A stretch of DNA of 64,000 nucleotides from an uncultured Candidatus Rokubacteria bacterium (GTDB lineage Bacteria; Methylomirabilota; Methylomirabilia; Rokubacteriales; CSP1-6): contig CAVYTA010000005.1 in NCBI GenBank assembly GCA_963771355.1, positions 320,001 through 384,000 on the forward strand. Reading direction: 5' to 3'. A program made the position numbers and the translations under genes. Below the pieces are notes generated by a model. It had not been told where the DNA came from. It searched no databases and saw only the letters and a program-made list of their open reading frames with translations. This document shows, piece by piece, positions 1 through 20,292 of the stretch (position 1 is the stretch's first letter; each line of letters starts with the position of its first letter).

Positions 1-2998
1 GTTACGGTCTCCCCCACGAGGACGCTCGTCGGGCTCGGCGTCACCGCAGTGATCGTCGGCGCCACATTCGTCACGTTGATCGTCTTGCTGTCGTTCCCGA
101 CGCCCCCGTCCTTGTCCGTCGCCGACAGCTCACCACATAGGTCCCGTTATCGTCCGGCGTGAAGCTGAAGCCCGCGTCACTCCCCGTCGACCCGAAGGGA
201 GCCCCGTTCTTCGTCACGCTCCAGCTCCGCGTGAACCCAGCGGCGGTGTCCTGCGAGCTCGGGTCCGTCACGGTGCTTCCCAGATTGATCGCGGTGCCCT
301 CGGGGCTGCTCGCCGGTGCCCCCGTGATGGCTGCCGTCGGCGGCACGTTGGTCACGGTGATCGTCTTGCTGTCGTTCCCGACGCCGCCATCCTTGTCCGT
401 CGCCGACAGGCTCACCACATAGGTTCCGTTGTCGTCCGGCGTGAAGCTGAGGCCCGCCCCGATTGCCCGATGCAAACGGGCTCCCATTCTTTGTCACGCT
501 CCAGGCAAACGTGAACCCGGCGGCGGTGTCGGCCGAGCTCGGGTCCGTTACGGTGCTTCCCAGAGTGATCGTCGTGCCCTCGGGGCTGCTCGCCGGTGCC
601 CCCGTGATGGCCGCCGTCGGCGGCACGTTGGTCACGGTGATCGTCTTGCTGTCGTTCCCGACGCCGCCATCCTTGTCCGTCGCCGACAGGCTCACCACAT
701 AGGTTCCGTTGTCGTCCGGCGTGAAGCTGAGGCCCGCCCCGATGCCCGATGCAAACGGGCTCCCATTCTTTGTGACGCTCCAGGCAAACGTGAACCCGGC
801 GGCGGTGTCTGCCGAGCTCGGGTCCGTTACGCTGCTTCCCAGATTGATCGCGGTGCCCTCGGGGCTGCTCGCCGGTGCCCCCGTGATGGCTGCCGTCGGC
901 GGCACGTTGGTCACGGTGATCGTCTTGCTGTCGTTCCCGACGCCGCCATCCTTGTCTGTCGCCGACAGGCTCACCACATAGGTTCCGTTGTCGTCCGGCG
1001 TGAAGCTGAGGCCCGCCCCGATGCCCGATGCAAACGGGCTCCCATTCTTTGTGACGCTCCAGGCAAACGTGAACCCGGCGGCGGTGTCGGCCGAGCTCGG
1101 GTCCGTTACGGTGCTTCCCAGAGTGATCGTCGCGCCCTCGGCGCTGCTCGCCGGTGCCCCCATGATGGCTGCCGTCGGCGGCACGTTGCTGACCGTGAGG
1201 GAGAACGTGGTCGTCGCGGTCCCGCCATTACCGTCGTTGGCGGTGATCGTCACGGTTTGACTCTGAGCCGGACCGTCGGTCGTGGCGAACGACCAGCTCC
1301 AGGTGCCGGCCGCATTGGTCCCGGACTTGCTGACTGACCCGACGGAGGCGGATAGCGCGACCGTGTCGCCCGCGTTCGCGTCCGACCAGGTCCCGGAGTT
1401 GGAAGCCGTCGCACCCTCGTTCACAGCCACTGATCCGTTGTTACGTGCGATGGTCGGCGGGGTGTTGTCCGGCACGAGGGCAAAGTTCTTGCGCCGTGAC
1501 CGGCGTGGTATTGGTGATCGCGAACGAGGGGTGAGGTCTTGCGTCACGTATCCGTGATTTCGAAGCGGTGATCGAGATCGTGGCATTGAATTGCCAGCAA
1601 ACTGAACGGTTAGCGTAGTAGTTTCCCGTCGCGTCGGCGCTCGTCGTGGTGTTGAGGTCCCATTGCAGCCATTGGCCGCGGGTGGCAGCTGAGCTGCTGC
1701 CCGCGATGCGGAGCATTGCGTGCTGGCGTGCCCTTCACAGTGCCGCTCACCGTTTGATTCGCGTCCGCCCGGTACGGCCCCACGAACGGCCCGCCCTCGG
1801 CCAGGGGGTCGGCGCCGGCGGGCTGGATGGACTCGGTCGCCGTCGAGGCGAGGGCGCGGGCCATATTGATGCGCCCGTTGCCGGTCTGGATCTGGGTGCC
1901 GGCGGGGTCGGCGGTGCTGGCGATGCGGAAGACGATGACGCCATTCGAGAGCGTCGGGTCGACGGCCTTCATGAACGCGGCAAGACCCGCGACGTGGGCG
2001 GCCGCGGCCGAGGTGCCGTTGATCACCGCGTAGGCGTCACCGGAGCTCGTCGTCGGGATGTCGGTGCCGGGGGCGGCGATGAAGACCGCCTGACCCTCGT
2101 TGCTGAAGGCGGCTTGCGCGTCGTTCTGGTCGGTGGCGGCCACGCCCATCACGCCGCGGTCTCCGGCCGGGAACGCCGGAGTGCTCAAGGCGCTGTTGCC
2201 GGCCGAGGCCACGAGTACGACGCCACGCGACCACGCGTAGTCGATTGCCTCCTGGAGCGCGGGGCTGAAGCCCGGGTTGCTGAACGCCATCAGGATGACG
2301 TGGGCGCCGTGGTCGACTGCCCATATCACGCCTGCGATCACGTCGCTGTCGAGGCCCTCGCCGTTCGCGTTGAGCACGGTCACCGGCATGATCCGCACGC
2401 CGTCGTAGGCGACACCGGCGATGCCGTCGGGCGACGTGCCGCCGGTCTGGGCGGCGATGATGCCCGCCAGCCACGTGCCGTGGCCGCTCGGATCCGTCAT
2501 CCCGTTGGAGCCATCCAGGATCGAGGTCCCGGGGACGACCACGCCGGCCAGCTCGGGATGGAGGGCGTCGACGCCGGTGTCGAGGATGGCAACTTTGGCA
2601 ATACCGGTCGGAGTCACCGTTCCGAACACCTGGTCCCAGGCGATCTTCGGCAGGGCCCACTGGTCCGGGTAGAGGGGATCGCCAGGAACGGACTCGGAAA
2701 GACGGACCTTGTTCTCTTCGGCGCGTTCCACTCGAGGGTCGGCCTGGTAGCGGGCGAGGGTGTCGGCGAGCTCGGCGGCCGGGACACCGATCACGTAGAG
2801 GCGAAGGGCGGGGATGGACGATCTGAGGATGCCGCCGTTGCTTGCGATTACGTCGACCTGCGCTTGATCCGTGAGGCCGGCGACCAGCTTCATGATGATC
2901 GACGCTGGCGGCGCCGATTGCGCCGACGCCAAAGCCGGCAGAAAGAGACCACCGACCAGGCCGATCAAGGCCACGAGCACCGCGAATCGCTTCAACAT
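1..2998 (-). CDS. Secreted S8 (subtilisin-like) serine protease with C-terminal PKD/Ig-like repeats; frameshifted in this sequence, runs off the window
   Basis: ATG at 2998 after GGGGGA; signal peptide MLKRFAVLVALIGLVGGLFLPALASA; triad motifs VAILDTG, SGHGTWLAG, NGTSAAAAHVAG and oxyanion ASAGN. Continues across frameshifts (~1730-1490, ~463, ~130) into repeats 'FTPDDNGTYVVSLSATDKDGG' (ORFs 1610..3142, 1441..1716, 177..1586, 71..487). Confidence 0.85.
62..1185 (-). repeat. About four tandem 279-bp (93 aa) PKD-like coding repeats
   Basis: GGCACGTTGGTCACGGTGATCGTCTTGCTG recurs at 342, 622 and 901 (periods 280 and 279). Three copies are near-identical; the copy nearest the window start is more diverged. 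Confidence 0.9.
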
Positions 2999-3060
2999 GT
3001 TGTCCCCCGTTTGCGCTTTTCGATCGTTCGACAGACCACCCGCGTCACCTATAGAACATA

Positions 3061-3077
3061 GGCATGACCCGTGCCAT
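3061..3077 (-). promoter_or_regulatory. sigma54 (-24/-12) promoter of the S8 protease gene
   Basis: Minus strand reads TGGCACG-GGTC-ATGC versus consensus TGGCACG-N4-TTGC, about 60 bp upstream of the ATG. Confidence 0.7.
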
Positions 3078-3094
3078 CCACCGAGCGTGCCGAG

Positions 3095-3120
3095 GACAAC
3101 GTAATAACAGCCACTTACGG
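3095..3120. promoter_or_regulatory. 26-bp motif shared with 16821-16846 (IHF-like core)
   Basis: GACAACGTAATAACAGCCACTTACGG versus GACAACGCGATAACAGCCACTTAAGG, 23/26 identical. Confidence 0.55.
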
Positions 3121-3147
3121 AGCGATTCACTGGGAGGAACAAAATGG

Positions 3148-3164
3148 TGTAAAAGAAGTCGACG
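3148..3164. promoter_or_regulatory. Possible enhancer-binding-protein site (TGT-N11-ACA-like)
   Basis: TGT-AAAAGAAGTCG-ACG in an AT-rich patch about 70 bp upstream of the sigma54 motif; one mismatch to the palindrome. Confidence 0.35.
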
Positions 3165-3316
3165 GATTTCGGCCGAAGGGCCCTCCAAAAGGGAGGCTCG
3201 AGCAGACGATCAGGCGGACGAGCGCCGCGGTGCTGTTAGGCGGTGGGTACTGCGATCGACGCCGCGGGCGTCACCCTCAGATGCGGGCGTATCACGAGAG
3301 CGGGAGGAGGAGTCCA

Positions 3317-3361
3317 TCCGGCAGGCGCCGCGCCGGCCCGAGCCGCGCGGCGCCTGCCGGA
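3317..3361 (-). terminator. 17-bp GC-rich hairpin right after the DUF928 stop codon
   Basis: TCCGGCAGGCGCCGCGC ... GCGCGGCGCCTGCCGGA is a perfect inverted repeat; no clear U-tract. Confidence 0.6.
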
Positions 3362-3367
3362 GCCCTT

Positions 3368-4114
3368 CTATTCGCTGGTGGTGTCGGGCAGGCCAACCTG
3401 TCGAAGCAACGCCGAGCGCTGCGTCTTGAGGGCTGGATTCTCCGGAGCCTGATCGATCAGGTCGTTCAGCGCCGTCATTGCGTCGTACCAGAGGCCGGCT
3501 TCGGCGTACAGGGCGGGCAGGTCCGCCTTCGGTGTCCCCGAGGCCTTGGTGGCCAGCCCGTCAGGCAGGGCGACCCGCTCGACGGACCCGCCGGCCAGGA
3601 TGTCCTTCGACCGGCGTCCGGTGTCGGGCATGACGGCGACGTACCAGTGGTAGGCGACCCCGGGCGCCAGCCGGACGCCGTGGTCGGCCAGCCGGACGCT
3701 ATGGACGCCCGCCTTGACCGGCGGCTCGATGCGCAGCTCGACGAGGGGGTCGCTCTTCTGCGGATCGACGAGGGTAAGCTCGACCGGGTGTGAGCTGGGG
3801 CTGGAGATGAACCAGTACAGCACCGGCTGCTCGCTGGACGTCAGCCCCGTGTGGGCCGGCGCCAGGACCGAGAGGATGAACGCCTCACGGCCCGTTCCGC
3901 GGGTGCCGCCACCGACCCGGCCGCCGGGGGCCCCCCGCAAGGGCGGCTTGTAGACCGGCGCCGACGCGGTGGCCTTGGCGTCGGGGGTCGCAGCCGCCGG
4001 CGGTTTCTGCTGCGCATGGCCCGGGGCCACGGGGACAAGGACCGTGAGGGAACACAGGGCGATGGATGCGATCGCGATGCGCTCCAGGGCCAAAAACCTC
4101 GACGCTGCGCTCAT
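3368..4114 (-). CDS. DUF928 domain-containing exported protein
   Basis: Signal peptide ending GHA-QQ; motifs YKPPLRGAPGGRVGGGTRG, GLTSSEQPVLYWFI, LYAEAGLWYDA...LLRQVGL; ATGA overlap with the cyclase stop at 4111. Confidence 0.85.
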   Translation of the reverse strand: MSAASRFLALERIAIASIALCSLTVLVPVAPGHAQQKPPAAATPDAKATASAPVYKPPLRGAPGGRVGGGTRGTGREAFILSVLAPAHTGLTSSEQPVLYWFISSPSSHPVELTLVDPQKSDPLVELRIEPPVKAGVHSVRLADHGVRLAPGVAYHWYVAVMPDTGRRSKDILAGGSVERVALPDGLATKASGTPKADLPALYAEAGLWYDAMTALNDLIDQAPENPALKTQRSALLRQVGLPDTTSE

Positions 4115-6171
4115 TGCTGTGCCTCCCGCGGCAGCCCGGTTCCGGCGACGCGTGACGTCGCGCGGGGAGGGTCTCCCGCCTGTAACGGTCGCGACCCGGC
4201 GAGGGACTCGGCCGAGCTCTGGACCGGCTCCGGCTTCCGCTCGCCTAGCACTCGATAGATCGTGACCAGCTGCTGTTTCCCTTTGAGTCGCTCCTCGGCG
4301 ACCCACTCGGTGTCGAACACGTCAGCCACGTACGCATGCGTGGAGTCCCCGATGAGGGTCCGGCATGGTCGGGTGAGAGGATCGGGCGGGTGCACGTCCT
4401 TGTCGAAGCTCTCCAGTCTCGAGGCGGTGTTCAGGGTGTCGCCCACCACAACGTACTCCCAACGATCGGTGCTGCCAAGGGTGCCCGAAACGGCCTCTCC
4501 GGTGACGATCCCGACCCGCATGCCGGTGACCGGCCTCCCGGCCGCCAGCCAGACCTGGTTGAGCTCGAGCAACCGGCGCTCCAGCGCCAGGGCACACCGT
4601 ACGGCGTTGACCGCATCGCGGGCGATCTCGGCCTCGGTACGCCGGGGTACCGGCACGCCGAAAAGGGCCACGATCGAGTCGCCGGCATACTGTCGGATGA
4701 CACCGCCGTGACCGCTGATCTCCGGCGCCAACGCGCCCATGTATTCGTTGAGCCAATCCATGAGCGACTCCGGGCCGACACGCTCGGAAACGGTCGTGAA
4801 TCCGGTCAGGTCCGTGAACAACGCGGTCACCACGAGGCGCTGGGGGCGGGGCCGGCCGCCGCCGGCGAACTGTTCCCGGTCGCGCCAGATGGCTTCTGCC
4901 ACTTCCTTGGACACATGCTGCGAGAAGAGACGCATCAGCATACCGCGTTCCGCGCTCTCTCGATAGGAACGATATGCGACCACAAAGCCGGTCGCGCCGA
5001 GCCAGGCGAGCCCCGGCGGCACCACCGGCCACCACCACCCTTTGACAAAGGCGACGTAGGCGGTCCCCGCGATCAGGATGAGACCCACGGCGACGGCCAC
5101 GGTCAGGCTGAACGCGTTGAGCGTCCGGACGCCGAGGAATGCTCCCAGGCCGGCCCAGAGGAGGACCCACAGCCAGCCAAGCCACAGGGGAGGGCTCCAG
5201 AGCGGACGCTCGCCCTTGAGCGCGGTGCGGAGGAGCTGGCTGACGAGGTGAGCGTGGATCTCGACGCCCGGAACTTGCTGTTTCGGACGCAGCCCGGCGC
5301 TGAGCGGGGTGTAGAAGTCGTCCTTGACGCTCTCGGCGGTCACTCCGATCAGGACGACGCGGCCTCGTACCAGCTCGGGAGGCACTTCGCCCCGCAGGAC
5401 GGCGCCGAGCGAGACCCGCTGGAACGGCCCGGGGCCGGCGAGATAGTCGACCAGGAACTGGTAACCACCGGCGTCCAGGCCGACATACGGCCCATCGTTC
5501 GGCCCGAGGGGGCGGATCGCGGTCGGACCGAGCTTGACGAGGGACGCGTCGGCGGCATCGGCGCCGAGCCCCAGTCCCTCCGGCTCCAGATAGTGCAGGG
5601 CCAGGCGAAGGGCGAACGCGTACAGCGCCGTCTCGCCGTCGTCCAGGAAGAGAAGGCCTCGCCGCACGATGCCGCCCGAGTCGACGACGATGTCGTTGAA
5701 GCCCACCTTCTCCGTGCCTTTCACCACCCGGGGCGGCGCCACCCCGGCCGAGGAGCCGTCGGCGAACTTCGTCACCACCACGACCGGCTGCGGCCCGCGA
5801 AGAATGAAATCGAGCTCGAGGGAGCCCGGCGCCACCGGCACGTCTCGATAGATGTCCAGCCCGATTGCCCGGGGGCCGAGGGCGAGCAGCGCGTCGAGCG
5901 TCTGCGCCAGCACCGCGTCGGTGAGCGGCCAGGTGCCCAGCTCCTGGATGTCGCGCTCGCTGATGGTCACCACGACGATGCGGGGGTCGGGCATCGCGTC
6001 CGGCCCCGGCGCCCGGATCCGGAGGAAGCGGTCGTAATGAGCGAGCTCCGCCGGCTCGAGGAGCCGCAACCCGCGCAGGCCCAGCACGATCGCGGCGACG
6101 GCGAGGGCGACCACGATGGGGACGACCCAACCGGGAAGGGAGGTGGGCAGCACGAGTCGGAGTCGGCGCAT
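4111..6171 (-). CDS. CHASE2-domain class III adenylate/guanylate cyclase
   Basis: N-terminal TM; CHASE2 motifs (DPRIVVVTISERDI, GPRAIGLDIYRD, GRVVLIG, VPGVEIHAHLVSQLL); three TMs; cyclase motifs LFTDLTGFT, QYAGDSI, GDTLNTASRLE. Confidence 0.92.
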   Translation of the reverse strand: MRRLRLVLPTSLPGWVVPIVVALAVAAIVLGLRGLRLLEPAELAHYDRFLRIRAPGPDAMPDPRIVVVTISERDIQELGTWPLTDAVLAQTLDALLALGPRAIGLDIYRDVPVAPGSLELDFILRGPQPVVVVTKFADGSSAGVAPPRVVKGTEKVGFNDIVVDSGGIVRRGLLFLDDGETALYAFALRLALHYLEPEGLGLGADAADASLVKLGPTAIRPLGPNDGPYVGLDAGGYQFLVDYLAGPGPFQRVSLGAVLRGEVPPELVRGRVVLIGVTAESVKDDFYTPLSAGLRPKQQVPGVEIHAHLVSQLLRTALKGERPLWSPPLWLGWLWVLLWAGLGAFLGVRTLNAFSLTVAVAVGLILIAGTAYVAFVKGWWWPVVPPGLAWLGATGFVVAYRSYRESAERGMLMRLFSQHVSKEVAEAIWRDREQFAGGGRPRPQRLVVTALFTDLTGFTTVSERVGPESLMDWLNEYMGALAPEISGHGGVIRQYAGDSIVALFGVPVPRRTEAEIARDAVNAVRCALALERRLLELNQVWLAAGRPVTGMRVGIVTGEAVSGTLGSTDRWEYVVVGDTLNTASRLESFDKDVHPPDPLTRPCRTLIGDSTHAYVADVFDTEWVAEERLKGKQQLVTIYRVLGERKPEPVQSSAESLAGSRPLQAGDPPRATSRVAGTGLPREAQQ

Positions 6172-6172
6172 C

Positions 6173-7918
6173 TCAGAACGCCGCCAGCAAGAACTGGAAG
6201 TGCACGCCGGCCTGCCCCTTCTCCCCGTGGCGATCCTTGGTGACGATAACGTCCTGGAACGTGTCGGGGCTGCCGATGATCCTGACATCCCGCAGCCGGT
6301 ATCCGAAATATATCTCGAACTGAGGCTTCACCGACACGACGCCCGGGAAGGTGAGGGCCCACCGGAGGCCAATCCCCACACTGGAGATGTCGATGGGATC
6401 CGGCGTCTCCCCCACCGCGCTCCACCCGCGGCCGTAGTCGAAGAAGGGGGCGAGCTCCAGGTAGTCCGCCCACCGCGTATTGCGGACCAGGGGCACCCGC
6501 AGCTCGACCGAGGCCAGCAAGGCATTGTCCCGAACGAGCGTGTTTTCCCGGTAGCCACGGACGGTGAAGCGGCCACCGATCGACACCTGCTCGAGCGTGA
6601 GGAGCGGATCGGGGGTGAGCTGCACGTCGGCCCGGACGATCAGCTGGCTGTCCAGGACCGGGAGGCGACTCGCCCACTGGACCTGCCCCAGCCAGGAGAA
6701 GAATCTCCCGTCGGGCACGTCAGGATCGGAATTCACAGTGGCCCCCAGCGCGTCGATGCCGAACGAGAAGCGCGACCGCAGGGCGATGGCCTGGCGCTGC
6801 GTCCGGTGGACGAATTCCTGGGCCACGCGCAACGCGCTCACGACGGTCTCCCCGTCGTCCGTGGAGCCCGGCAAGAGCGGAAACCCCTTGCCGAGGAGCG
6901 ACGTGGTCTCCTTGAGCCGCTCGCCGATCAGCTCGACCGCCACCGCGGTCTGGGGCGTGCGATACACAGGCTGTCGGATTCCCGCAGTGAAGATCTCCGA
7001 CTCGCTCTTGATGTCCAGCTCCCTGAACTGCTCGTCGACGATGCTGAACGCATTCCGCCGGTACTGAAAGCTCGCCGTCGTGTCCCAGGCGTTGAGGGGA
7101 ACGGCGTACCGGAAGTCCAGCAGCGGATCCAGCCCGTCCGAGCGTCCGTATCGGAGGGTGAGGATGTCTCCCCAGCCGAGCAGATTGACGTTCTCGAGCG
7201 TGACGATGCCGCGCTCCGCGCCGACCGAGGTCGACTGGTGGTTGTTGAAGTCCAGCAGGAGGCGGAAGGGCTGGCGATCCTCGACCTGCACGTCGAGCAC
7301 GCTCTCACCGGGCCGGAGGCCGGGCTTGAGGTCCACCCGGAGGCGCTGGATCCGCGGATCGTCGAGGAGCAGCTGGATCTGGCGCTGGAGCTCGTTGACG
7401 TTGAGGGGGGCGGTGAACGCAAGCCGGCGGCGGAGGTAGCCGGTCCGGAACCACCGGTTCCCGCTGATGTTGAGCTCGCTCACGCCCCCCTCGATCACCT
7501 GATAGGTGACCTGGCCATCCTGGATGGTCTGGTCGGGAAGGATCACGCCCGAGTTCACGAAGCCCGCATCCGCGTACAGCCGCGACAGCTCGAGTCGGAG
7601 CGCCTGGAGATCTTCCTGGGTGAGATACCGGTTCTCGTAGCGCTCGGTGATCTTCGCCAGGGCTTCGGGGGGAAAGACGGTGCTGCCCACCACGTTCACG
7701 CGCTGGACGAACACGCGCAGACGCAGTGGCACTCCGATCTCGGGCTGCCGCGGAGGCGCCAGCGGCGGCAGGACTCCCTCGGGCTCGGCCGGGGGGACCT
7801 GGGCCCTCGCCGAGGCCGGTTGGAGCACGAGGAGGAGGAGGAAGACGATCGAGATGACACTCCCTGCGCGGCGGGAAAGCCGTGCTGCGCAGGCGAGTCG
7901 GTCGCTGCTTACCGTCAC
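6173..7918 (-). CDS. TpsB (ShlB/FhaC/HecB family) outer-membrane transporter
   Basis: Probable GTG start overlapping the TpsA stop; signal peptide; POTRA-like region (LYADAGFVNSGVILPDQ...VIEG); loop motif IGGRFTVRGYREN; C-terminal Phe. Confidence 0.9.
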   Translation of the reverse strand: MTVSSDRLACAARLSRRAGSVISIVFLLLLVLQPASARAQVPPAEPEGVLPPLAPPRQPEIGVPLRLRVFVQRVNVVGSTVFPPEALAKITERYENRYLTQEDLQALRLELSRLYADAGFVNSGVILPDQTIQDGQVTYQVIEGGVSELNISGNRWFRTGYLRRRLAFTAPLNVNELQRQIQLLLDDPRIQRLRVDLKPGLRPGESVLDVQVEDRQPFRLLLDFNNHQSTSVGAERGIVTLENVNLLGWGDILTLRYGRSDGLDPLLDFRYAVPLNAWDTTASFQYRRNAFSIVDEQFRELDIKSESEIFTAGIRQPVYRTPQTAVAVELIGERLKETTSLLGKGFPLLPGSTDDGETVVSALRVAQEFVHRTQRQAIALRSRFSFGIDALGATVNSDPDVPDGRFFSWLGQVQWASRLPVLDSQLIVRADVQLTPDPLLTLEQVSIGGRFTVRGYRENTLVRDNALLASVELRVPLVRNTRWADYLELAPFFDYGRGWSAVGETPDPIDISSVGIGLRWALTFPGVVSVKPQFEIYFGYRLRDVRIIGSPDTFQDVIVTKDRHGEKGQAGVHFQFLLAAF

Positions 7919-10900
7919 CGGCCACACGCCGCGTCCAGATACGACCGGCGGAGCCCGGGCCACTCACTGGCGAGAAACGGCCCCGCGCCCCCGGCCACTC
8001 CGGCGGGTCGGAGCTCCCTCAGCGCGCTCGGCAGGAGGCCGCCGGGCTCGAGGGGCAGCCCCTCGCGGCCGGCGACGACCAGGCTGCTCGTCTTCCCCTC
8101 GGCCAGGCGGGCGGCACAGGAGGCGCGCAGGAGCGCGGCCGCTTCCAGCACCTCGGTCGACAGCTCGGCGAGGCTCCCGCTCACGTCGGTGACCACCGCA
8201 TTGATGTTGACCGTGCCGGGCGCGCTCAGCGCCGACGACGCCGTCACCGCCGTCGCGATGGGCGTGGAGCTGAGCATCACGTTCGCAAAGATGCTGACAT
8301 TGCCGCCCGGACCGCCGAAGGCATCGGCGTGGATGCCCGAGTTGTCCAGCACGATGAAGTCGAGCGGGTGTCCGCTCGATCCGAGGGTAATGTTGCCGCC
8401 CCCGCCGACACCGCTCCGGACGCTCGTGGTGATCTGGCTGTCGATCATGTGCAGCAGCGAGCCGGTGGAGGTGATGGTGATGTTGCCGCCGTCGGCCTGT
8501 ACCGAGTCGGTCGAAATCGACGCGTGATCCATCTCGAACAGGCCGCCGAAGATGATGTTGATGCTCCCCGCGGTGGCGCTGGGGCCGCCGGTGCTCGACG
8601 CCGAGATGGTGCCGCCGTCGGCCAGCCGGATCTGCGGCGCGGCCAGCGTGATGTTCCCGCCGGGCCCCGTGCCGGCGGTGGTGCTGAAGAGGCCGCTCGC
8701 GCCGGTCGGCGACGCCCCGGTGATCGTGATCGACTCGCTGGCGGTCACGTCGATGTTCCCGGCCGGCCCGCTCGCCGGGAGCAGACTGGTGCTCGACGCC
8801 GAGATGGTGCCGCCGTCGGCCAGCTGGATCTGCGGCGCGGCCAGCGTGATGTTCCCGCCGGGCGCCGTGCCGGCGGTCGTGCTGAAGAGGCCGCTCGCGC
8901 CGGTCGGCGATGCCCCGGTGATCGTCATCGATCCGCTGGCGGCCACGTTGATGTCCCGGCCGGCCCGCTCGCCGGCAGCAGACTGGTGCTCGATGCAGAT
9001 ATGCTGCCGCTCGCGCCGGTCGGCGACGCCCCGGTGATCGTCATCGATCCGCTGGCGGCCACGTTGATGTCCCCGGCCGGCCCGCTCGCCGGGAGCAGGC
9101 TGGTGCTCGACGCCGAGATGGTGCCGCCGTCGGCCAGCCGGATCTGCGGCGCGCTCAGCGTGATGTCCCCGCCGGGCCCCGTGCCGGCGGTCGTGGTGAA
9201 GACGCCGGTCGGCGACGCCCCGGTGACGGTGATCGAGTCGCTGGCGGTCACGTTGATGTGCCCGGCCGGCCCGCTCGCCAGGATCACGCCGGTGCTCGAC
9301 GCCGAGATGGTGCCGCCGTCGGCCAGCTGGATCTGCGGCGCGGCCAGCGTGATGTTCCCGCCGGGCGCCGTGCCGGCGGTCGTGCTGAAGAGGCCGCTCG
9401 CGCCGGTCGGCGACGCCCCGGTGATCGTGATCGATCCGCTGGCGGCCACGTTGATGTCCCCGGCCGGCCCGCTCGCCGGGAGCAGGCTGGTGCTCGACGC
9501 CGAGATGGTGCCGCCGTCGGCCAGCTGGATCTGCGGCGCGCTCAGCGTGATGTCCCCGCCGGGCCCCGTGCCGGCGGTCGTGGTGAAGACGCCGCTCGGG
9601 CCGGGAAGCCCCGATGCGCCGGTCGGCGACGCCCCGGTGACGGTGATCGAGTCGCTGGCGGTCACGTTGATGTGCCCGGCCGGCCCGCTCGCCAGAGATC
9701 ACGCCGGTGCTCGACGCCGAGATGGTGCCGCCGTCGGCCAGCTGGATCTGCGGCGCGGCCAGCGTGATGTTCCCGCCGGGCGCCGTGCCGGCGGTCGTGC
9801 TGAAGAGGCCGCTCGCGCCGGTCGGCGACGCCCCGGTGATCGTGATCGATCCGCTGGCGGCCACGTTGATGTCCCCGGCCGGCTCGCTCGCCGGGAGCAG
9901 GCTGGTGCTCGACGCCGAGATGGTGCCGCCGTCGGCCAGCCGGATCTGCGGCGCGCTCAGCGTGATGTCCCCGCCGGGCCCCGTGCCGGCGGTCGTGCTG
10001 AAGATGCCGCTCGGGACGGGAAGCACCGACTCGCCGGACGGCGACGCCCCGGTGATCGTGATCGAGTCGCTGGCGGTCACGTTGATGTGCCCGGCCGGCC
10101 CGCTCGCCAGGATCACGCCGGTGCTCGACGCCGAGATGGTGCCGCCGTCGAAGAGCTGGATCTGGGCGGACCGGATGGTGATGTTCCCGCCGGGCGCCAT
10201 GCCGGCGGTCGTGCTGAAGATCCCGCTCCGGGCGTCGTTGACGAAGCCCCCGAACGGGGCGGGAAGCACCGACTCGCCGGTCGGCGACGCCCCGGCGATC
10301 GTGATCGACTCGCTGGCAGTGACGTCTATTTGCCCGGCCGGCCCGGTCGCAAAGAGCACGCTGCTGCTCGCGACTTGACCGCCCCCGGTGAGCAGCAGCG
10401 TCCCGACGTTGAGCACGATGGCACCCGCCCGCCCGGTCTCCAGGGTGCTCGAGTTGATGAACCCCCCATCGATCACGACCGTTGGCGCCGAGAGGGTCAC
10501 GCTGCCGACGTCCTGGCGGAAGGTCTGGCTCGAGATCCCCGCCCGATCGGTGATGCTGACCGGGCCGTGGGCCGTAACGGTGATGCCGCCCCCCTGCGCC
10601 GTGACGTCGCCGCTCTGGATCACTGCCTGACTGCGGAGGTCGAGGCTGCCCACGTCGAGGGTGATGCGCCCGGCAGGCGTCGGATCTCCCAGCGGCGTCG
10701 TGCCCGAGCTGCTGCTGGTGAAGATGCCGGTCGGGCTCGTCGTGCTGCCCGCCCCCGAGATCAGGGCGGGTCCCGTCACCGTCACCGTCACGTTGCCGCC
10801 GGGCAAGGCGCTGGCCGCGTTGTGGCTGCCGATTGTGCTGCCCGCCATCAGATTGAAGGACCCCGCGTTGACCGAGATGTCGCCCGCCCGCCCGTCGTCC

Positions 10901-12398
10901 GACGTCTGCGAGACGACCGTCGCGCCAGCGTCGACCGTTACGGTCCGCGCCGAGAGCGAGAGCCCGCCGCCGTCGCCGGCAAAGATCGTAATGCTGCTGA
11001 CGCGGCTCGGGCTTCCGAACACGTCGCGGCCGGAGATGGTGATCGTGTCGGCCGAGATCGCGACGTTGCCCCCTGGTCCCGTGAAGCCGAGGTTCACGCT
11101 CTCGAGGGCGCCGGCCGTCTGCCAGCGTCACCGTTCCACCGGTCGCGGTGACGGTGAGCGATCCCGCGCCCGTTCCCAGCACGCATTGTCGCCGAGGAAA
11201 CTCAGCGTGCTCACGACGGCGCCGTCGGCGATCTCGATGGATCCGCTGACCCCGTCCGCGGGCCGGCCCACGGTGATCCGTATGTTGCCGCCCTGGCCGC
11301 CCCCGGACTGCGTGACGCTGTTGATCGAGGCGCCGCTCGTGACCCGAAGGGTGTCCGCCGTCACGTCGACGTTGCCTCCGCGGCCGGCACCCGAGGTCGC
11401 CGCCGTCACCGACGAAAATCCCGAGACCTCCACGGCGGGCGCCGCCAACCGAATATCGCCCCCTCGGCCGCCCGCGAACGTCTCCGTCACGACCGTCGAC
11501 GAGTTGATGATCTCTAGCCTCTGAGTAGCTCCCAGGTCGATCCCGACCTCGGACGTATTGTTGAACTCGCCGAAGCTTTGCGCGCTGATGAATGCGCCGT
11601 CTATAGTGACCTGGCCCCCGCGGATGACGACCGAGCCGTGCGGGTCGCCGTTCGCGTCGAGAACGCTGCCCGAGATCCCGACCTGGCCTAGGCTCGCCGT
11701 GGTGCCCTGGAGCGTCGCGATGGAGACCTCGCCGCCCGTCACGCTCGCCACCTGCAGGCGGCCGCTGGACGCCTGCAGGTACGCCCCCCGGCGATGGTCA
11801 CGGCTCCGCCCACGATCCCGAGCGTCTGTTCGGGGGGGACCTGCAGGAAGCCGCCATCGACGATGATGGGCCCGCGCGGTCCCAGGAATCCGAAGCTCGC
11901 GGGGTCGGCCACCGAGAGCACGTTCGCCTGCTGGTTCGGACACGTCGACACACAGAACGTGCTGCCGTCGACGAAGCGGATGTAGTCGGCGCTGCTGACG
12001 TGAAACGACCCGCCGACGTTGAGCGTCGCGCCGGCACCGAAGATCACGCCGGCGGGGTTGATCAGGAAGAGGTTGGCGCCCGGGTACGTGAGGCTGTCGA
12101 TGGTCCCGTAGATGCTCGACATCTCGCCCCCCGTAACGCGGCTCAGGATGTTGCGCGTGACCAGGTTCGGCGTCGTGTTCTTGAACTGGGCGGTGTCGAA
12201 GGACCCGACGCTGAACTGGCCGAAGCTGTGAAACAGGTTCTGGCCGCCGCGGGTACCCGCCCGTGATCTCGTATGTCCCGCCCGAGAGGGTGTGACCGTG
12301 GTCCCCAGCCCGCTCGAGGTGATCGCCGTGGGCCCCTGGGCGCGGGCCGGCGCCGCGCCCAGGAGGAGGGCTAACATGACGAGGAAGACGATACCCAT
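7915..12398 (-). CDS. Filamentous-haemagglutinin-family TpsA exoprotein (~1490 aa), frameshifted in this sequence
   Basis: Signal peptide MGIVFLVMLALLLGAAPARA; TPS domain motifs NLFHSFGQFSV, NILSRVTGG, NLFLINPAGVIFG; G/S/T-rich beta-helix repeats; tail C-x-SSLVVAGREGLPLEP. Frameshifts near 12280, 11780, 11170-11100, 9695 and 8955-9005. Confidence 0.88.
8590..10320 (-). repeat. About 8-9 near-identical 189-216 bp coding repeats in TpsA, alternating A/B types
   Basis: GAGATGGTGCCGCCGTCG recurs at 8603, 8801, 9115, 9304, 9502, 9719, 9917 and 10133. Confidence 0.9.
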
Positions 12399-12428
12399 AC
12401 GCTCCTCTAACGTCTACCTTATTCCTGC

Positions 12429-12473
12429 CAGCCGGTCTGCCTGCCGGCAACGGGTCCGCTCGCAGGCCGGCTG
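12429..12473. other. Intergenic stem-loop between the unknown secreted gene and tpsA
   Basis: CAGCCGGTCTGC ... GCAGGCCGGCTG inverted repeat (one G-T pair). Confidence 0.45.
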
Positions 12474-12488
12474 CTTCACACTGACTCC

Positions 12489-14309
12489 TCACTGGGAGAA
12501 GAGGAAGATGGTGTCGCCGGGGCCGACCGGCTCCAGGTTGTAGAGCAGCTCAAACTTCCAGGCCGCCTCGCGGTCATGAGGGGGAAGCTGGTCACCGGCA
12601 TCTCGGTGCGCAGCTGGCAGTCGGGCTGCACGGGCACGTTCTCCGCCTTCGTGAAGGTCTCGCCGGGACCATCGCCCCAGATGAACGAGGGTCCGGCGGG
12701 ATCGCCGTTGGCATCCAGCGGGGTGACCCGCATCGTGAACTCGTCTGAGACCCGGGAAGTCGCACTTCAGGTCCTCCCCGAAGATCGGCGGTCGGCTTCC
12801 GGTTTGCCCGAACGGTCGTCTTGAACGCGCCGATGGTGAAGCTGTTGAGCTCGACCTCCTGGTCCACCGTGGGGTGGTGGTGGTAAGGATGACCGAGATC
12901 GCCCGAAGGTCGGCCCCCGCATATTGGGACGGCATTGACTTGAAACTCGTGATCGTGCCGTTGGGAAGCAGGACGTTATTGGAGTTCACAAGGTTCGCCC
13001 CGCTCGCCCCGCTCGAATCGCAGCCCAGGGGAATCTTGATCACCTCAAACGCGCCGTTCGAAATCGTCGCTAGCTGGAGCTCGACGAACAAAGTGTTCGG
13101 GTTCGGGCAGTCGCGGTCTGCCACGCGTAGTCCACCTTGAGGGAGGTGAGGTCCCGGGGCTGGACTGACCCGGGGGTCGGCACCCAGCTTTGGTAGGCCC
13201 CGTCGTCGAAGAGATCGGTGTTGTTGAAGAGGTCCGAGCGGAGCACCGTGGGCGTGCCCGGGTCAATCGTCGGGGTGAAGGTCACCTTCTCGAGGTTCCA
13301 CCACAGGGGCAACTTGCCCGACTGCTGGAGCTTCGGGAAAAGTCCCTGGTTCTGCTCGAGAAACGCGCGAAGCGTGGGTTGCTGAGTGTAGTCAACGACC
13401 GTGTTGACGTCTGCCGTGAACTCGGGCGCGGCCACGTCGACGGAGGTGTCGATCACCCCATGCGTCATGACGCTGTTGTTCGACCCGCCGACGGCGGCGC
13501 CGCCCACCACCCTCAGCGTCTCGGTGGCCCCCTTGTAGATCGCCGTGAGCTCGCCCTTCAGCGACGGCTTGCAGCTCGACGCCACGCCGACGGTGCCGCA
13601 AGGGATGCTCTTGGTCTCGGACGGGTGCGTCGGCGGCCCGAACGCGCCCCCGGTGGTGAGGTTGTGCACGTTGACCGTCGCCACCGCATTGTCACCGAAC
13701 TGGTTGACCGTGACGTTGTTGGCGAGGAGCTTGAGCGTCAGGCAATGCGGCGGCGTCGTACTGTGGAGGCGCAGGCGCTCGCGGCCAGCCCCGGTCGACT
13801 TGAAGAAGGTGCCGCTCATCGCCGCCGTGTACGCGTAGAGGTTGCCAGTGAGCGCCGGTACTCGTGGTCCGGTCAAGGCGGAGGCATAGGTGATCTTGAG
13901 CGTCACCGCCGGAGTCGACGCGTGGTGCCAGCGCCGGAGAGTGGCGAGCAGCCCGGCCAGGTTCAGGATGTCGCTCGACAGCCCGTCGACGCGGTAGACG
14001 CGGGCCCGGTTCGCGGTGGAGATGTCCCGGATCGTCACCGTCGCGTGTTGGCGACCTGAGATCGTTTCGCGAGCAGGCGGCGTGGTGCGCGGGTGGCAGT
14101 TCGGGCCCCGGCGGACGTTGCTCGTGCACGCGAGCGCCACCGCTGATTGCCTGCGCTGTCCGTGAAGGTGGCCCGGTGGGCAGTGTCCGGGACCGCGGTG
14201 CAATTCGGCCCACCCGCGTCGCCGTGATCGATACCGTGGGGAACGCCTCCGCCGCGCCCGGCGCGGCCAGCATGAAAAGGGCAAGAATCCATAGCAGAGT
14301 GGTCTTCAT
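12489..14309 (-). CDS. Secreted protein of unknown family (~600 aa), multiply frameshifted
   Basis: AGGAG RBS; signal peptide MKTTLLWILALFMLAAPGAAEA. Contiguous coding-like, Thr/Asn/Cys-containing peptide is split over ORFs 13692..14309, 14035..14316, 13070..14284, 12489..13124, 12592..12867 and 12476..12733. Confidence 0.65.
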
Positions 14310-14361
14310 TTGTCACTCCTTCCGCGAGCCCTCAAGCTCGCACGTACCGTTCGTCATCGCG

Positions 14362-16683
14362 TTACAGCCAGTTGTTGATGAGTAGAAACGGCGACCAGAA
14401 TCCGGGATGTTCGTAGCGTGGATCACTCAGCAGCTTCACCTGCGCGCGCTGGAGGGCCACCCCTCGTGAGACCGAGGGGCTCTTCAGCTCACGGTAAAAA
14501 TCCGCAATCAGTCCGGCGGAGGCCTCGTCATTGACGCTCCACAGCGTGGCCACCGCGCTCCGGGCGCCGGCCTTGACGGCGACGCCGGCCAGCCCCAGCG
14601 CCGCCCGATCGTCACCCTCGGCGGTGTCGCACGCGCTCAGGGTCAGGAGCTCGAGGGGCTCGTCCCGGTACTTGAGCACCCCGATCAGCTGATCGAGGCG
14701 GTCCATCGTCACCTTGCCGTCGAAGGCGAGGAGGAAGGTCTTGTCCACGTCGCCGCCGAACTCGCCATGCGAGGCGACGTGGAGAATCGAGTAGGTGCCC
14801 GTCTTCAGCTCGCGCTCGAGGCTGGCGACGGAGAACTGCGCGTTGAGGAGGGTGGTCCCGCCGAAGACCTCCCGCACGTTGGCGATCTCCGTCTCGACCT
14901 CGGGCAGCGGCGCGAACCCCTGGACCGCCTCGGTCACTCCCACCGCCAGGATCCGGGGGTTCTTGCGATCGAGCGGGCGCGGGTCGGTGAGCTTGAGGCC
15001 GGGGGTGATGGCCAGCGCGTATTTTGCTATCAAGAACTGCTTACCGTCGTGGAGCGCCGCCATCGGAATCGTACGGAGCGGGCCATCCGGCACGAACACC
15101 AGGGTGTCGATCTTGGCGGCGGCCAGCTCGGCCTCCAGCGGGCGGATCAGCCACTCGTGGAGCTGTTGAGCGGGGCGCAGGTACTGGCGGGTGGTTCGAC
15201 GCTCGAGCAGGTTCCGGAACCGCCGGACCTCCTGCGTGAGCCTGGCCTCCCCGATCGGCACCACGAAGCGCCGGAGCCCGGACGGGAGCGTGACCAGCAG
15301 CTCGATTCGATCGGCCAGCACGATCGGGTACACGACGGCGGCGGTCGGCGACACGACGTCGAGCTGGGTCATCCGCGACAGCGCGATGTCCACGCAGTCG
15401 TCGCGGAAGTAGTCGCGCAGCTCCGCGACCTTGAAGGACTCTACCACCTCACGCGCTTCGGTGAGGAGGGTCAGGCGCTCCCGGTCCAGCGTGGTCCCTC
15501 CGGCCGCTCCCGACGGGGCTGCCTGGCCATCGCCCGCCCGGCGGAGGAGCAGGTCGACGAGCTCGAAGTAGAGCGGTCCGATGGACTCGCGAAACGAATC
15601 CGCGGACGCGTCGTAGCGCACCGACAGCTCCGGTCGCACCGCGGCCACGTGCTGGGCGGCGGCGCGATAGGCGGTGAGGGCCTCATCCATCGCGCCCATC
15701 TTCCGGTGCAGCCGCGCCACCTGCCACTGCCACCGGTACAGCGCCTCCGGCGCGTGCGCCTGCTGCGCGGCGAAGATCGCCTCGCGCGTCAGCTGTAGCG
15801 CCTCGGGGTACCGGCGCTCGTCCTCGTACAGGGCTCCGAGGTAGCCCCTCGCATAGGACGTGGTCCGCCGGTCGCCGAGCTGCTCCGCGATTTCGCTCGC
15901 CCGGCTGAAAGCCCGGGCGGCGCGCAGGATCAGCTCGCCCCGGGGGTCCGGACCCGTCCCGCGCAGCTCGCGATAGCCGACGCCAATGCTCACGAGGAGG
16001 AATGACGCCTCTCGGGAGGGGCTGGACTGCTCCGCCGAAGCGAGCGCGTCGTCGAGGGCCTCCCGGGCCGCCCGGGCGTCCCCGGCCTCCCGCAGGGCTC
16101 GGGCCAGGTTGACTCGGGCCCGCGTTCGTTGGGACATGTCGCCGGTTCGCTCCGCGAGCGCGGCGCTCTCGCGATAGACGGCGACGGCCTCGGGCGCCTT
16201 CCTCCGTGTGGCCAGGAAATTCCCGAGGTCATTCAGCACGGCGGCGGTGAGCGCCGTGTCCCCGCCCTCCCGTGCCATGTCGAGAGCCCGCCTCAGCGTG
16301 ATCTCGGCGGCGTCGGGGGGGCCGGTCGCGATGAGGACATTTCCCAGTCGGGACAGGATCCACGGGACGTGCGCGCGCTCCTCGGAGCCTTCCGCCAGCT
16401 TCAACGCCCGATCGAGGACTCCGACGGCCTGCCGGTACCGTCCGAGCGCGGCGTATGCCTCGCTCGCGTGCACCAGCGCCAGGATCTGGCCCGCTCGATC
16501 GCCCGCCTGCTCCGACGCGCTCGCGGCGAGCATCCAGCTTTCGATCGCGCGATCGAAGGCGCCTCGCTCGAAGGCGGCGCGCCCCGTCGCCAGGTGCGCT
16601 TGGACGTCGGGTGACGGGGCTGCAGACGCGGGTGAGCAGAGGAAGGCCGTCAGGAGGACAAGGACGAGCAAGACGTAAGGCAC
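14362..16683 (-). CDS. TPR-CHAT (caspase/separase-like) cysteine protease with signal peptide
   Basis: AGGAG then GTG at 16683; hydrophobic leader ending ASA-AP; TPR helices; CHAT motifs LVFVPDGPLRTIPMAAL, ILHVASHG, LTLSACDTAEG, VATLWSVND, HPGFWSPFLLINNW. Confidence 0.92.
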   Translation of the reverse strand: MPYVLLVLVLLTAFLCSPASAAPSPDVQAHLATGRAAFERGAFDRAIESWMLAASASEQAGDRAGQILALVHASEAYAALGRYRQAVGVLDRALKLAEGSEERAHVPWILSRLGNVLIATGPPDAAEITLRRALDMAREGGDTALTAAVLNDLGNFLATRRKAPEAVAVYRESAALAERTGDMSQRTRARVNLARALREAGDARAAREALDDALASAEQSSPSREASFLLVSIGVGYRELRGTGPDPRGELILRAARAFSRASEIAEQLGDRRTTSYARGYLGALYEDERRYPEALQLTREAIFAAQQAHAPEALYRWQWQVARLHRKMGAMDEALTAYRAAAQHVAAVRPELSVRYDASADSFRESIGPLYFELVDLLLRRAGDGQAAPSGAAGGTTLDRERLTLLTEAREVVESFKVAELRDYFRDDCVDIALSRMTQLDVVSPTAAVVYPIVLADRIELLVTLPSGLRRFVVPIGEARLTQEVRRFRNLLERRTTRQYLRPAQQLHEWLIRPLEAELAAAKIDTLVFVPDGPLRTIPMAALHDGKQFLIAKYALAITPGLKLTDPRPLDRKNPRILAVGVTEAVQGFAPLPEVETEIANVREVFGGTTLLNAQFSVASLERELKTGTYSILHVASHGEFGGDVDKTFLLAFDGKVTMDRLDQLIGVLKYRDEPLELLTLSACDTAEGDDRAALGLAGVAVKAGARSAVATLWSVNDEASAGLIADFYRELKSPSVSRGVALQRAQVKLLSDPRYEHPGFWSPFLLINNWL

Positions 16684-16820
16684 GAGCGAAGCTCCTATGC
16701 GTGGGAGAGGGTCTTGGAACACATACACTAATGGAGGAAGGATTGTCAAGACCGACAAGTACTTACCAGATTTGCGAGGCGCGGACTGGTGCAGCCCATA
16801 CCGTAAGCGCACAAACTGAT

Positions 16821-16846
16821 GACAACGCGATAACAGCCACTTAAGG
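16821..16846. promoter_or_regulatory. 26-bp motif shared with 3095-3120, upstream of the CHAT operon
   Basis: 23/26 identity to the motif upstream of the S8 gene, same orientation relative to transcription. Confidence 0.55.
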
Positions 16847-16862
16847 ACCGGCGCGCCGGGAG

Positions 16863-17906
16863 CTACACGGGCTCGAGCGGCGCGCTCAGCCGTGCGCCGG
16901 GCAGGACGATGCCCCCGCGGTCGCCGATCTCCACTCCGCCGTAGCGATCCGCGAAAGCGGGCGGCAGCGGCCGGCCGTCGGGGGGGCACAGCCAGAGTCG
17001 AAGCAGGTGACGCTTGAGCGAAGGCTCCGGCCAATCCTCGTACTCGGTGCGGTCGTGCAGCACCTGGTGGTTGTGCACGAGCTGGATGTCGCCGGGCTCG
17101 AAGGCCATGTTGAGCACGAGGGCGGGGTCCTCCACCGTCGCGTCGAACACGTCGAGCGCCTCGATCTGCCGCGGGGTCAGGCGGGGCACCTCGGGGAAGC
17201 GCTGGGCCGACTCGATGTACCGCCGCACGAAGATGGTGGACAGGAGCCCCGCGTGCCAGTTGAAGACGGGCACCGCGAACCACGGGCGCTTCCCTTCGGG
17301 CACCTCGCCTCGCCGGTCGGTGTGGAAGGGCTCGAAGAGGGTCGGCAGGACGTCCGGCCGCCGGGCGTGTATCGCGTTGAAGACGGTCACCGAGCTCACC
17401 AGGCTCGAGAGCCCGCCGGCCTTCGCCTTGCGCACGCAGAGGAGGCCCACGAGGTCCACGGAGTCGGTGTGGTAGTTCTGCCGTTTCGTCGTCTGGTAGA
17501 CGCGGACGCTGGGATCGTGCACGTCGTAGCCCAGGTCGCGCACGTGGCCGAGGAGATGTCCCTTGCCGTTCTGGGAGCGGGGGCGACCGAACCAGGCGCC
17601 CATCCCCCAGTAGAGCGCGGCGAGGTCGGCGAGGTCATGGCGCTGGGCGGGGAGCCCGCGCAGCAGCGCGAAGCCGCGACCGTGAAGGAGCTCCGCGCGG
17701 AGCGCCTCGAGGCGGGGCCCCAGCGCGGGCAGGGGGAAGTCCGCCTTCCGGATGTCCTCCAGGGCGAGGCCACGGCGGCGCACCGCCGCCAGCGCCGCCT
17801 CCAGCTCGGCCACGTCCGCGGCGGAGAGCCGGACCATCCACTCCTCCGAGCGGGCAAGCTCCGCGCCGCGCCACGCCGACGGCCCCGTGATGGGACCCGG
17901 CGGCAT
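16863..17906 (-). CDS. TauD/TfdA family Fe(II)/2-oxoglutarate dioxygenase
   Basis: GPSAWRG start; YHTDSVD (HxD); GDIQLVHNHQVLHDRT; RHLLRLWL. This is the C-terminal part of ORF 16863..19505. Confidence 0.88.
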   Translation of the reverse strand: MPPGPITGPSAWRGAELARSEEWMVRLSAADVAELEAALAAVRRRGLALEDIRKADFPLPALGPRLEALRAELLHGRGFALLRGLPAQRHDLADLAALYWGMGAWFGRPRSQNGKGHLLGHVRDLGYDVHDPSVRVYQTTKRQNYHTDSVDLVGLLCVRKAKAGGLSSLVSSVTVFNAIHARRPDVLPTLFEPFHTDRRGEVPEGKRPWFAVPVFNWHAGLLSTIFVRRYIESAQRFPEVPRLTPRQIEALDVFDATVEDPALVLNMAFEPGDIQLVHNHQVLHDRTEYEDWPEPSLKRHLLRLWLCPPDGRPLPPAFADRYGGVEIGDRGGIVLPGARLSAPLEPV

Positions 17907-17926
17907 GGGCGGCGCGGTGGCGGCGC

Positions 17927-18763: not shown

Positions 18764-18775
18764 GGTGCCTCCCGG

Positions 18776-19921: not shown

Positions 19922-19932
19922 GTCGGGTCTCC

Positions 19933-20292
19933 TCACCCTCCGGCGAGCTTGACAGTGTAGGCGCGCGCGCGGAGCCACTCCGCCACGCGCTCGCGATGGT
20001 CGCCCTGGACCTCGATGCGGCCGTCCTTGACGGTGCCGCCGGCGCCGCAGAGGCGCTTGAGCTCCCCGGCGAGGCGCTCGAGCGCGGGCCCCCGCTCGCG
20101 CAGCCCGCGAACGACCGTCACCACCTTGCCCCCCCGCTGACTCCGGTCACGGAAAAGGCGCACCACGCCGTCATCGGGAACGATCGGAGACGACGGCGCC
20201 GACGGCGGGGTGAATCGCGGTGGAGGGGCCGGCGTCCGCGCCGGCCGGGCGCGTCCTCCGTCGGTGGAGTAGACGAGGCGGCTCCGCGTCAT
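19933..20292 (-). CDS. yciH: SUI1-family translation initiation factor/inhibitor
   Basis: RLVYST; RGGKVVTVVRGL; LKRLCGAGGTVKDGRIEVQGDHRE. Confidence 0.92.
   Translation of the reverse strand: MTRSRLVYSTDGGRARPARTPAPPPRFTPPSAPSSPIVPDDGVVRLFRDRSQRGGKVVTVVRGLRERGPALERLAGELKRLCGAGGTVKDGRIEVQGDHRERVAEWLRARAYTVKLAGG

Follow-up and report, generated by a model that had tools for sequence, protein, structure and literature searches.

In Pseudomonas aeruginosa, the CdrA/CdrB-LapG/LapD system joins a two-partner secretion (TPS) filament that carries a C-terminal cysteine pair to a protease of the periplasm and a nucleotide-signalling protein of the inner membrane (PMC13405001, PMC7616799, PMC4694147), while in the NsrA-CyaK/CyaD1/CyaD2-Clr pathway of Sinorhizobium meliloti a CHASE2 cyclase is switched on across the envelope by a protein signal, via an outer-membrane barrel (PMC13001267, PMC7529298). 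DdvA, of the DdvA/DdvS pair of Myxococcus xanthus, has a periplasmic TPR-CHAT region with a His-Cys dyad, the proposed start of a proteolytic signal (PMC11506125). The MtxA operon of magnetotactic bacteria encodes a secreted protein with immunoglobulin (Ig)-like and TPR-like parts and, next in order, a CHASE2 adenylate cyclase (PMC4439547), and the EACC2-caspase-CHASE2 systems link a caspase-fold peptidase to CHASE2 (PMC8195603). The present study concerns a locus that shares features with all of these systems. It lies in a 64,000-nt stretch of DNA (the window) from an uncultured Candidatus Rokubacteria bacterium of the phylum Methylomirabilota (GCA_963771355.1, contig CAVYTA010000005.1, our C5, positions 320,001 to 384,000), the genome of which is 5.5 Mb in size, has 70% GC and is rated 99.8% complete. 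The locus specifies an exported, caspase-like TPR-CHAT protease, a secreted protein (gene 2), a TPS filament (TpsA) and its outer-membrane transporter (TpsB), a CHASE2 nucleotide cyclase and a DUF928 protein. Five of these genes form a real and widespread envelope module, of which the sixth, gene 2, is a variable companion, and the five proteins very probably work together.

The locus departs from each of the described systems. Compared with CdrA/LapG/LapD, it has a TPR-CHAT protease and a CHASE2 class III cyclase in place of the Lap proteins, an extra DUF928 protein, and all of its genes are clustered; a Pfam scan of the locus genes gave no match to the Lap family, the rest of the genome not having been searched for Lap genes. 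Unlike the barrel of the S. meliloti pathway, which is described without CHAT or DUF928 in the available accounts, the one at this locus is a TpsB that serves a filament (scoring as ShlB/POTRA_2). DdvA is a single membrane anti-sigma factor proposed to cut itself (PMC11506125), whereas the CHAT protein of the window is free and exported and has a cyclase as output; its N-terminus holds only a signal-like segment and TPRs, and there is no sigma factor among the six genes. MtxA, a protein without known function, has a further N-terminal domain, and the available part of its description mentions neither a TPS nor a CHAT partner (PMC4439547). In the EACC2 systems, caspase, CHASE2 and EACC2 form one polypeptide accompanied by an extracytoplasmic function sigma factor and DUF1822, with no mention of DUF928 or hemagglutinin in the part seen (PMC8195603), whereas CHAT and CHASE2 are separate genes at this locus, which has neither such a fusion nor such neighbours. 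The view, put forward in the initial annotation of this DNA, that characterised bacterial TPR-CHATs act in the cytoplasm is contradicted by the TPR-CHAT of DdvA, which is periplasmic and has been solved by cryo-EM (PMC11506125). A periplasmic TPR-CHAT is, then, already known, and the five-gene module is apparently unstudied: no study of the combination was found in the searchable literature, which excludes most subscription journals, and no paper pairing a CHAT domain with CHASE2 or a haemagglutinin was found in the same, mostly open, literature. A CHASE2-DUF928 pair has been recorded beside WD40 genes in Nostoc (PMC5587647).

All six genes lie on the minus strand (nt 16683 to 3368), as do all of the locus features described below, in the order TPR-CHAT (14362–16683), gene 2 (12489–14309), tpsA (7915–12398), tpsB (6173–7963), CHASE2-cyclase (4111–6171) and DUF928 (3368–4114). 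The co-orientation and tight spacing described in the initial annotation were both recovered: tpsA and tpsB overlap (tpsB perhaps starts with the GTG at 7918, which overlaps the stop of tpsA), tpsB and the cyclase gene are 1 bp apart, and the cyclase and DUF928 genes overlap as ATGA. Hydropathy likewise bears out a signal peptide or transmembrane anchor on every product, as a hydrophobic segment follows all six starts and CHASE2 has further transmembrane segments. The 17-bp hairpin said to close the cluster is present and perfect (3317–3361), is without a U tract and is kept only imperfectly in relatives; just six hairpins with arms of at least 17 and loops of at most 15 occur in the 5.5-Mb genome, this one included. 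Pfam domains over cut-off are CHAT and TPR, TPS, POTRA_2 and ShlB, CHASE2 and Guanylate_cyc, and DUF928, with none for gene 2. The signal peptide and TPS domain of TpsA, and the adjoining TpsB with POTRA and beta-barrel regions, identify a type Vb secretion pair, and a full-length Omp85 gene elsewhere in the genome is consistent with an outer membrane. The genome has a single DUF928 gene and a single CHAT gene, both at this locus. The CHAT, tpsB, cyclase and DUF928 frames are open, but gene 2 and tpsA, and these alone of the six, are frameshifted as assembled (see below).

A scan of species genomes listed at least 58 DUF928 loci, one of the search patterns having contained the DUF928 motif described below. 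Profiles built from the window's genes were run on the 27 listed loci that were fully flanked (20 kb of DNA), and the predicted co-occurrence across genomes was evident: TpsB was found in 25, CHAT in 24, TpsA in 23 and CHASE2 in 20, and 19 loci had all four. In three of the seven loci scored as lacking CHASE2, such a gene lies 3–10 kb past the edge. Titles among the listed loci include Alpha-, Beta-, Gamma- and Deltaproteobacteria, Nitrospirota, SAR324 and Pyrinomonadaceae, the close named homologues of the window DUF928 come from Methylomirabilota/Rokubacteria, and gene order and strand vary widely among the module loci. The commonest neighbour of DUF928 within 700 bp is a CHASE2-cyclase gene (48 of 79 loci). 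Plasmid matches numbered 19, and among the eight examined seven were annotated cyanobacterial loci, where CHASE2 adjoins DUF928 in five, CHAT lies within 9 kb in five and a haemagglutinin gene is present in three. Thus, of the six-gene core first proposed, TpsA, TpsB, TPR-CHAT, CHASE2-cyclase and DUF928 are conserved, but gene 2 is not, being matched in no more than 3 of the phylum's 251 genomes and replaced elsewhere by unrelated secreted proteins.

The DUF928 protein (248 aa; Pfam E-value 3e-35) consists of a signal peptide, a flexible linker and an MtxA-type fold. Its structural model (predicted local distance difference test, pLDDT, 76) shows a disordered N-terminal part, in which residues 61–68 have low pLDDT, then an Ig-like sandwich and, last, a TPR-like part made of helices. 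The best match in two structural searches was the C-terminal domain of MtxA, 4z29 (E-value 2e-4; Z 9.7, root-mean-square deviation 4.4, 149 residues aligned), the runner-up having a Z of 6.6. Identity over this match is 15–17%, and a longer DUF928-like relative compared with 4z29 by phmmer gave no match. The crystallised MtxA fragment arose by a trypsin cut in the flexible linker before the Ig domain (PMC4439547; PDB 4z29). Directly before its Ig domain, DUF928 has a linear motif (Y55–G73, YKPPLRGAPGGRVGGGTR-G; nt 3896–3952) with the consensus Y-x-P-P-x-R-G-x-P-x-x-R-x-G-G-G-T-R-G, in which Arg72 is the candidate cleavage position. Its core of three small residues, any residue and Arg was present at 136 of 157 domain starts (150 representatives) compared with 14 of 1050 control windows. 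By eye, a small-residue run ending in Arg was seen in all seven cyanobacterial proteins found without the DNA pattern, and x-[SAV]-[VT]-R precedes the Ig domain in all five longer DUF928-like relatives. One DUF928 protein (L076, 9623–10657) has three copies of the whole motif, one of them C-terminal, and another (L099, 2634–3695) has an array of about 13 GxxR units.

The DUF928 family comprises about 7,000 clusters at 50% identity, yielded a single paper in the literature that was searchable, and includes several fusions. Eight proteins (P0232, P0306, P0307, P0308, P0310, P0311, P0315 and P0316) have a zinc-finger anti-sigma-like N-terminus (zf-HC2 over cut-off in two), one transmembrane segment and a C-terminal DUF928, an architecture in which a cut in the linker could transmit a signal much as proposed for DdvA (PMC11506125). 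In the three sequences inspected the Arg before the Ig domain is always kept and the upstream motif is eroded in two, which fits, weakly, with a cut at this Arg and with an upstream peptide that serves the CHASE2 route. Searches for such fusions in 5, and then 301, genomes gave only plain DUF928 matches. Five protein clusters have CHASE2-cyclase, signal peptide and DUF928 in one reading frame, there is one CHAT-DUF928 fusion, and two proteins (P0176, P0266) join a peptidoglycan-binding domain to DUF928.

The CHAT protein (773 aa, GTG start; Pfam CHAT E-value 3e-59, plus TPR) has the layout typical of TPR-CHATs: the TPR array comes first, and the CHAT domain behind it carries a His639/Cys685 dyad. 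The dyad, as had been expected of a protease, is intact, and 70 of 73 CHATs retain the His/Cys pattern; two of the three that fail it still show His and Cys in an alignment of 50 CHATs. Export, also foreseen, is supported by a signal-like segment in 43 of 59 CHATs as against 10 of 177 internal control windows. Besides Cys685, the mature protein has a single cysteine, Cys430 (nt 15394–15396; context ELxDYFxDxC), a candidate partner for the TpsA tail. An equivalent is present in 69 of 73 CHATs, and in three of the four cyanobacterial CHATs inspected; the four CHATs without it all come from loci with no TPS gene in the examined DNA.

TpsA has a TPS domain (Pfam E-value 4e-32), a tandem repeat array (8590–10228) and a C-terminal tail (7915–8200) with a cysteine at 8116–8118, the motif SSLVVAGR-EGLP and a terminal cysteine at 7924–7926. 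The first cysteine occurs in all 66 TpsA tails (tails picked by a profile of that region), the terminal one in 60 of 64 unfused tails, and the motif between them ends in G-R-x-G-x-P. In two loci (L072, L076) the TPS domain, tail and TPR-CHAT are fused in a single frame; there the first tail cysteine is kept and the terminal one is absent. By analogy with the cysteine hook of CdrA (PMC13405001, PMC7616799), the tail is likely to stay in the periplasm as a putative hook on which CHAT would dock, and it is probable that CHAT binds the tail, possibly through a disulfide with Cys430. A second, unrelated TpsA/TpsB pair is encoded elsewhere in the genome (contig C4, about 215–218 kb; L130), without the conserved tail, CHAT or DUF928.

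The CHASE2 protein (686 aa) has a CHASE2 domain, a transmembrane segment and a class III cyclase domain, in which the catalytic residues D454, D498, N581 and R585 are intact. All 66 sequences compared share N581 and the metal-binding D454 and D498, and 65 have R585. The purine-specifying pair is Q494/V574; such a Q/V pair occurs in 31 of the 66 sequences, D/T in 16 and K/T in 11. Adenylyl cyclases have K with D or T at these positions, and guanylyl cyclases have E with C or G, so that Q494/V574 appears to be neither usual pair, and the cyclic nucleotide made is a matter of prediction. A complex prediction for the CHASE2 periplasmic domain and DUF928 (60-row alignments) scored 0.51, with one unrelated control at 0.43, and gave no verdict. 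An identity correlation of 0.67 between CHASE2 and DUF928 was set aside, being explained by shared ancestry, and cyclic-nucleotide-binding genes in 4 of the 27 loci, compared with about one expected from the density in this genome, were too weak a signal for use. A sequence search against solved structures returned no CHASE2 chain, and no direct ligand of CHASE2 was named in the parts of the literature examined.

Taken together, an outside-in envelope signalling circuit can tentatively be proposed, with a likelihood that we place slightly below even. TpsB would export TpsA, the tail of which would stay inside and hold CHAT; a changed state of the filament would activate CHAT, which would then cut DUF928 after Arg72, and the released peptide or the new DUF928 N-terminus would alter CHASE2 and hence the cyclase. 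Both DUF928 and the TpsA tail had been named as candidate substrates, and in each of them small residues do precede a conserved basic one. That DUF928 is the substrate, cut at Arg72, is rather likely, and we lean slightly towards a released N-terminal peptide or new N-terminus acting on CHASE2. Pulling, loss or damage of the filament is a conceivable trigger, if a somewhat doubtful one.

A number of observations weigh against this circuit. Related genomes are not independent samples. A separate count of the motif (162 of 165) was biased, as one search pattern contained it, and the profile used to gather the DUF928 family also included the motif region. CHASE2 is present in 211 of the 251 genomes of the phylum, and DUF928 is over cut-off in 17; most CHASE2 sensors are without DUF928, which is therefore not a general CHASE2 partner. 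Five loci (L073, L086, L093, L116, L117) have DUF928 without CHAT within 9–10 kb. Ten CHATs with Cys430 also come from DNA, mostly short, with no TPS gene. Cutting after Arg by the window CHAT is assumed, since among CHAT-fold proteases separase cuts after Arg and craspases after Met or Leu (PMC11506125). The strict motif is absent from five of the eight anti-sigma-DUF928 fusions. The in-frame CHASE2-DUF928 and CHAT-DUF928 proteins may reflect loss of a stop codon or read-through, because the former keep an internal Met and signal peptide and the latter an internal signal peptide. Finally, the TpsA tail, with a conserved G-R motif of its own, may be the substrate of CHAT instead of DUF928.

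This last point is central to an inside-out alternative resembling CdrA/LapG/LapD, in which CHAT would cut the TpsA tail at VAGR-EG and so shed the filament, DUF928 being a pseudosubstrate or adaptor by which CHASE2 holds CHAT inactive. The tail, with its two cysteines and the conserved basic residue that separates them, would suit such a mechanism, the TpsA-CHAT fusions bring enzyme and tail together, and a C-terminal cysteine hook keeps CdrA itself in CdrB until periplasmic LapG frees it (PMC13405001, PMC7616799). With its intact active site, however, the membrane protein looks like a producer of messenger and not a receptor; CHAT, CHASE2 and DUF928-like genes also cluster without a TPS pair (L042, L043, L046, L074), and the anti-sigma-like-DUF928 fusions suit a signal carrier better than an inhibitor. 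We consider shedding unlikely. A relay without proteolysis, in which CHAT and CHASE2 pass the DUF928 motif between them as a binding key and CHAT is a scaffold or a filament maturation chaperone, would account for a conserved stretch of about 18 residues, which is longer than a simple cut site, and the CHAT of DdvA was found in a resting state with no autoproteolysis observed (PMC11506125). It is decidedly unlikely, however, with the His/Cys dyad pattern so generally retained among CHATs and with tandem GxxR arrays that look like repeated cut sites.

It is very improbable that the genes are merely a co-regulated surface-attachment cluster with no single circuit, in which tpsA and gene 2 of this genome have decayed. 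Their linkage outlasts reshuffling across phyla, fusions occur in several combinations, the breaks in relatives are not shared and intact copies exist. Such a cluster would nevertheless be consistent with the confinement of breaks to gene 2 and tpsA, with the 26-bp upstream motif common to the operon and the next secreted protease gene (see below), and with the deletion of mtxA, which had no phenotype under standard conditions (PMC4439547).

The frame breaks themselves bear on the last alternative. Gene 2 has at least seven when compared with each of three intact homologues, and tpsA, which is split over several frames, has two by frameshift-aware alignment and about six when frames are read by eye. 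In L037 and L039, both relatives, gene 2 is broken 14 and 18 times, at positions that differ from those of the window, and in two relatives on short contigs (L129, L144) the gene 2 and TpsA frames are intact. Because the breaks of relatives sit elsewhere and intact copies are present, an assembly error, probably of long-read origin, in a strain-variable region is the likelier explanation. Public sequencing runs contained at most 0.36 of the sequence words, and the contigs compared came from other strains, so that they decided nothing about the frameshifts or about expression.

Gene 2 encodes a secreted, beta-rich and Cys-rich protein of about 590 aa, and 22 intact homologues (570–610 aa) share these properties. 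Searches of Pfam and NCBIfam gave no family match, and a model of the intact homologue P0121 (pLDDT 66, predicted template modelling score 0.44) had no credible fold match by Foldseek or Atlas. While L144 has 83–90% DNA identity to the window over CHAT and from the 3' end of tpsA to DUF928, its gene 2 has only about 26% protein identity, and the 5' part of its tpsA has diverged too. Among the 30 loci with room upstream of tpsA, a signal-peptide gene from outside the five-gene core occupies the slot in 9 by an automatic rule and in 14 by eye. In three slot genes a PEP-CTERM-like motif stands at the end, over cut-off in two; a domain common to gene 2 and these PEP-CTERM proteins was considered and rejected (hhalign probabilities below 5% against the slot proteins). 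To judge from these comparisons, gene 2 lies outside the core, as an exchangeable cassette for surface proteins, and moves together with the N-terminal part of TpsA.

The 26-bp motif occurs twice in the genome, even with 3 mismatches allowed: once before the CHAT gene (16818–16843) and once before the subtilase gene behind the operon (3092–3117). It has half-sites with an 11-bp period and resembles an OmpR/PhoB-type box. The same downstream gene has a similar copy before it in L143, and the copy upstream of CHAT was not conserved in the three relatives inspected. Neither an Rfam match (window 1–20000) nor a sigma-70 consensus site was found in the searches made. Directly downstream (window 1–3142, minus strand) is a large secreted subtilase (Peptidase_S8) followed by Ig/PKD-like repeats of 279 bp, frameshifted as assembled. 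In L039 (15900–16022) and L047 (2277–2411), the counterpart of the DNA after the hairpin (3230–3360) is the 3' end of a convergent gene, of which only a remnant is left here; the intact gene may code for the secretin of a type II secretion cluster.

Related arrangements occur in the same phylum and beyond. In five loci (L041, 2410–3477; L042, 5596–6627; L043, 5117–6127; L045; L046, 12790–13794) a two-domain secreted protein with a DUF928-like C-terminal part is encoded beside a CHASE2-cyclase, with no TPS genes in the examined DNA, and a TPR-CHAT gene is present in three of them (L042, L043, L046). These clusters appear to be an MtxA-like sister module; the N-terminal domain of the secreted proteins presumably resembles FecR. 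A Gemmatirosa plasmid (L121, 7769–10540) has CHASE2-cyclase and DUF928 in one frame and three flanking CHAT genes, no TPS gene being detected in 20 kb. On a Nostoc plasmid (L117, 5297–9558), genes for a PP2C phosphatase, an ATP-binding protein and an anti-sigma antagonist come before CHASE2-DUF928. Neither CHAT nor TPS genes lie within 9 kb of it, and this may represent a different output placed on the CHASE2-DUF928 pair. In nine loci titled Nitrospirota or Nitrospirales, L082 (1027–2052) and eight related to it, DUF928 and TpsB have an OmpA/Pal-like peptidoglycan-binding gene nearby.

A more specific form of the proposed circuit, which seems unlikely at present, is that DUF928 is a pro-hormone-like precursor from which CHAT at the filament base frees an Arg-terminated peptide, the ligand of the CHASE2 receptor. 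If true, this would be a mechano- or damage-sensing circuit analogous to protease-activated receptor signalling, with an output that varies by lineage (cyclase, other CHASE2 outputs or an anti-sigma factor) and that possibly includes a non-canonical cyclic nucleotide. The locus offers handles at the level of single residues, namely Cys685 and Cys430 of CHAT, Arg72 of DUF928 and the cysteines of the TpsA tail, and cyanobacteria that are cultured and non-pathogenic carry parts of the module on plasmids. The module could reveal a ligand for CHASE2, a trans-acting substrate of a periplasmic CHAT, and a way in which bacteria read the state of their own filaments.

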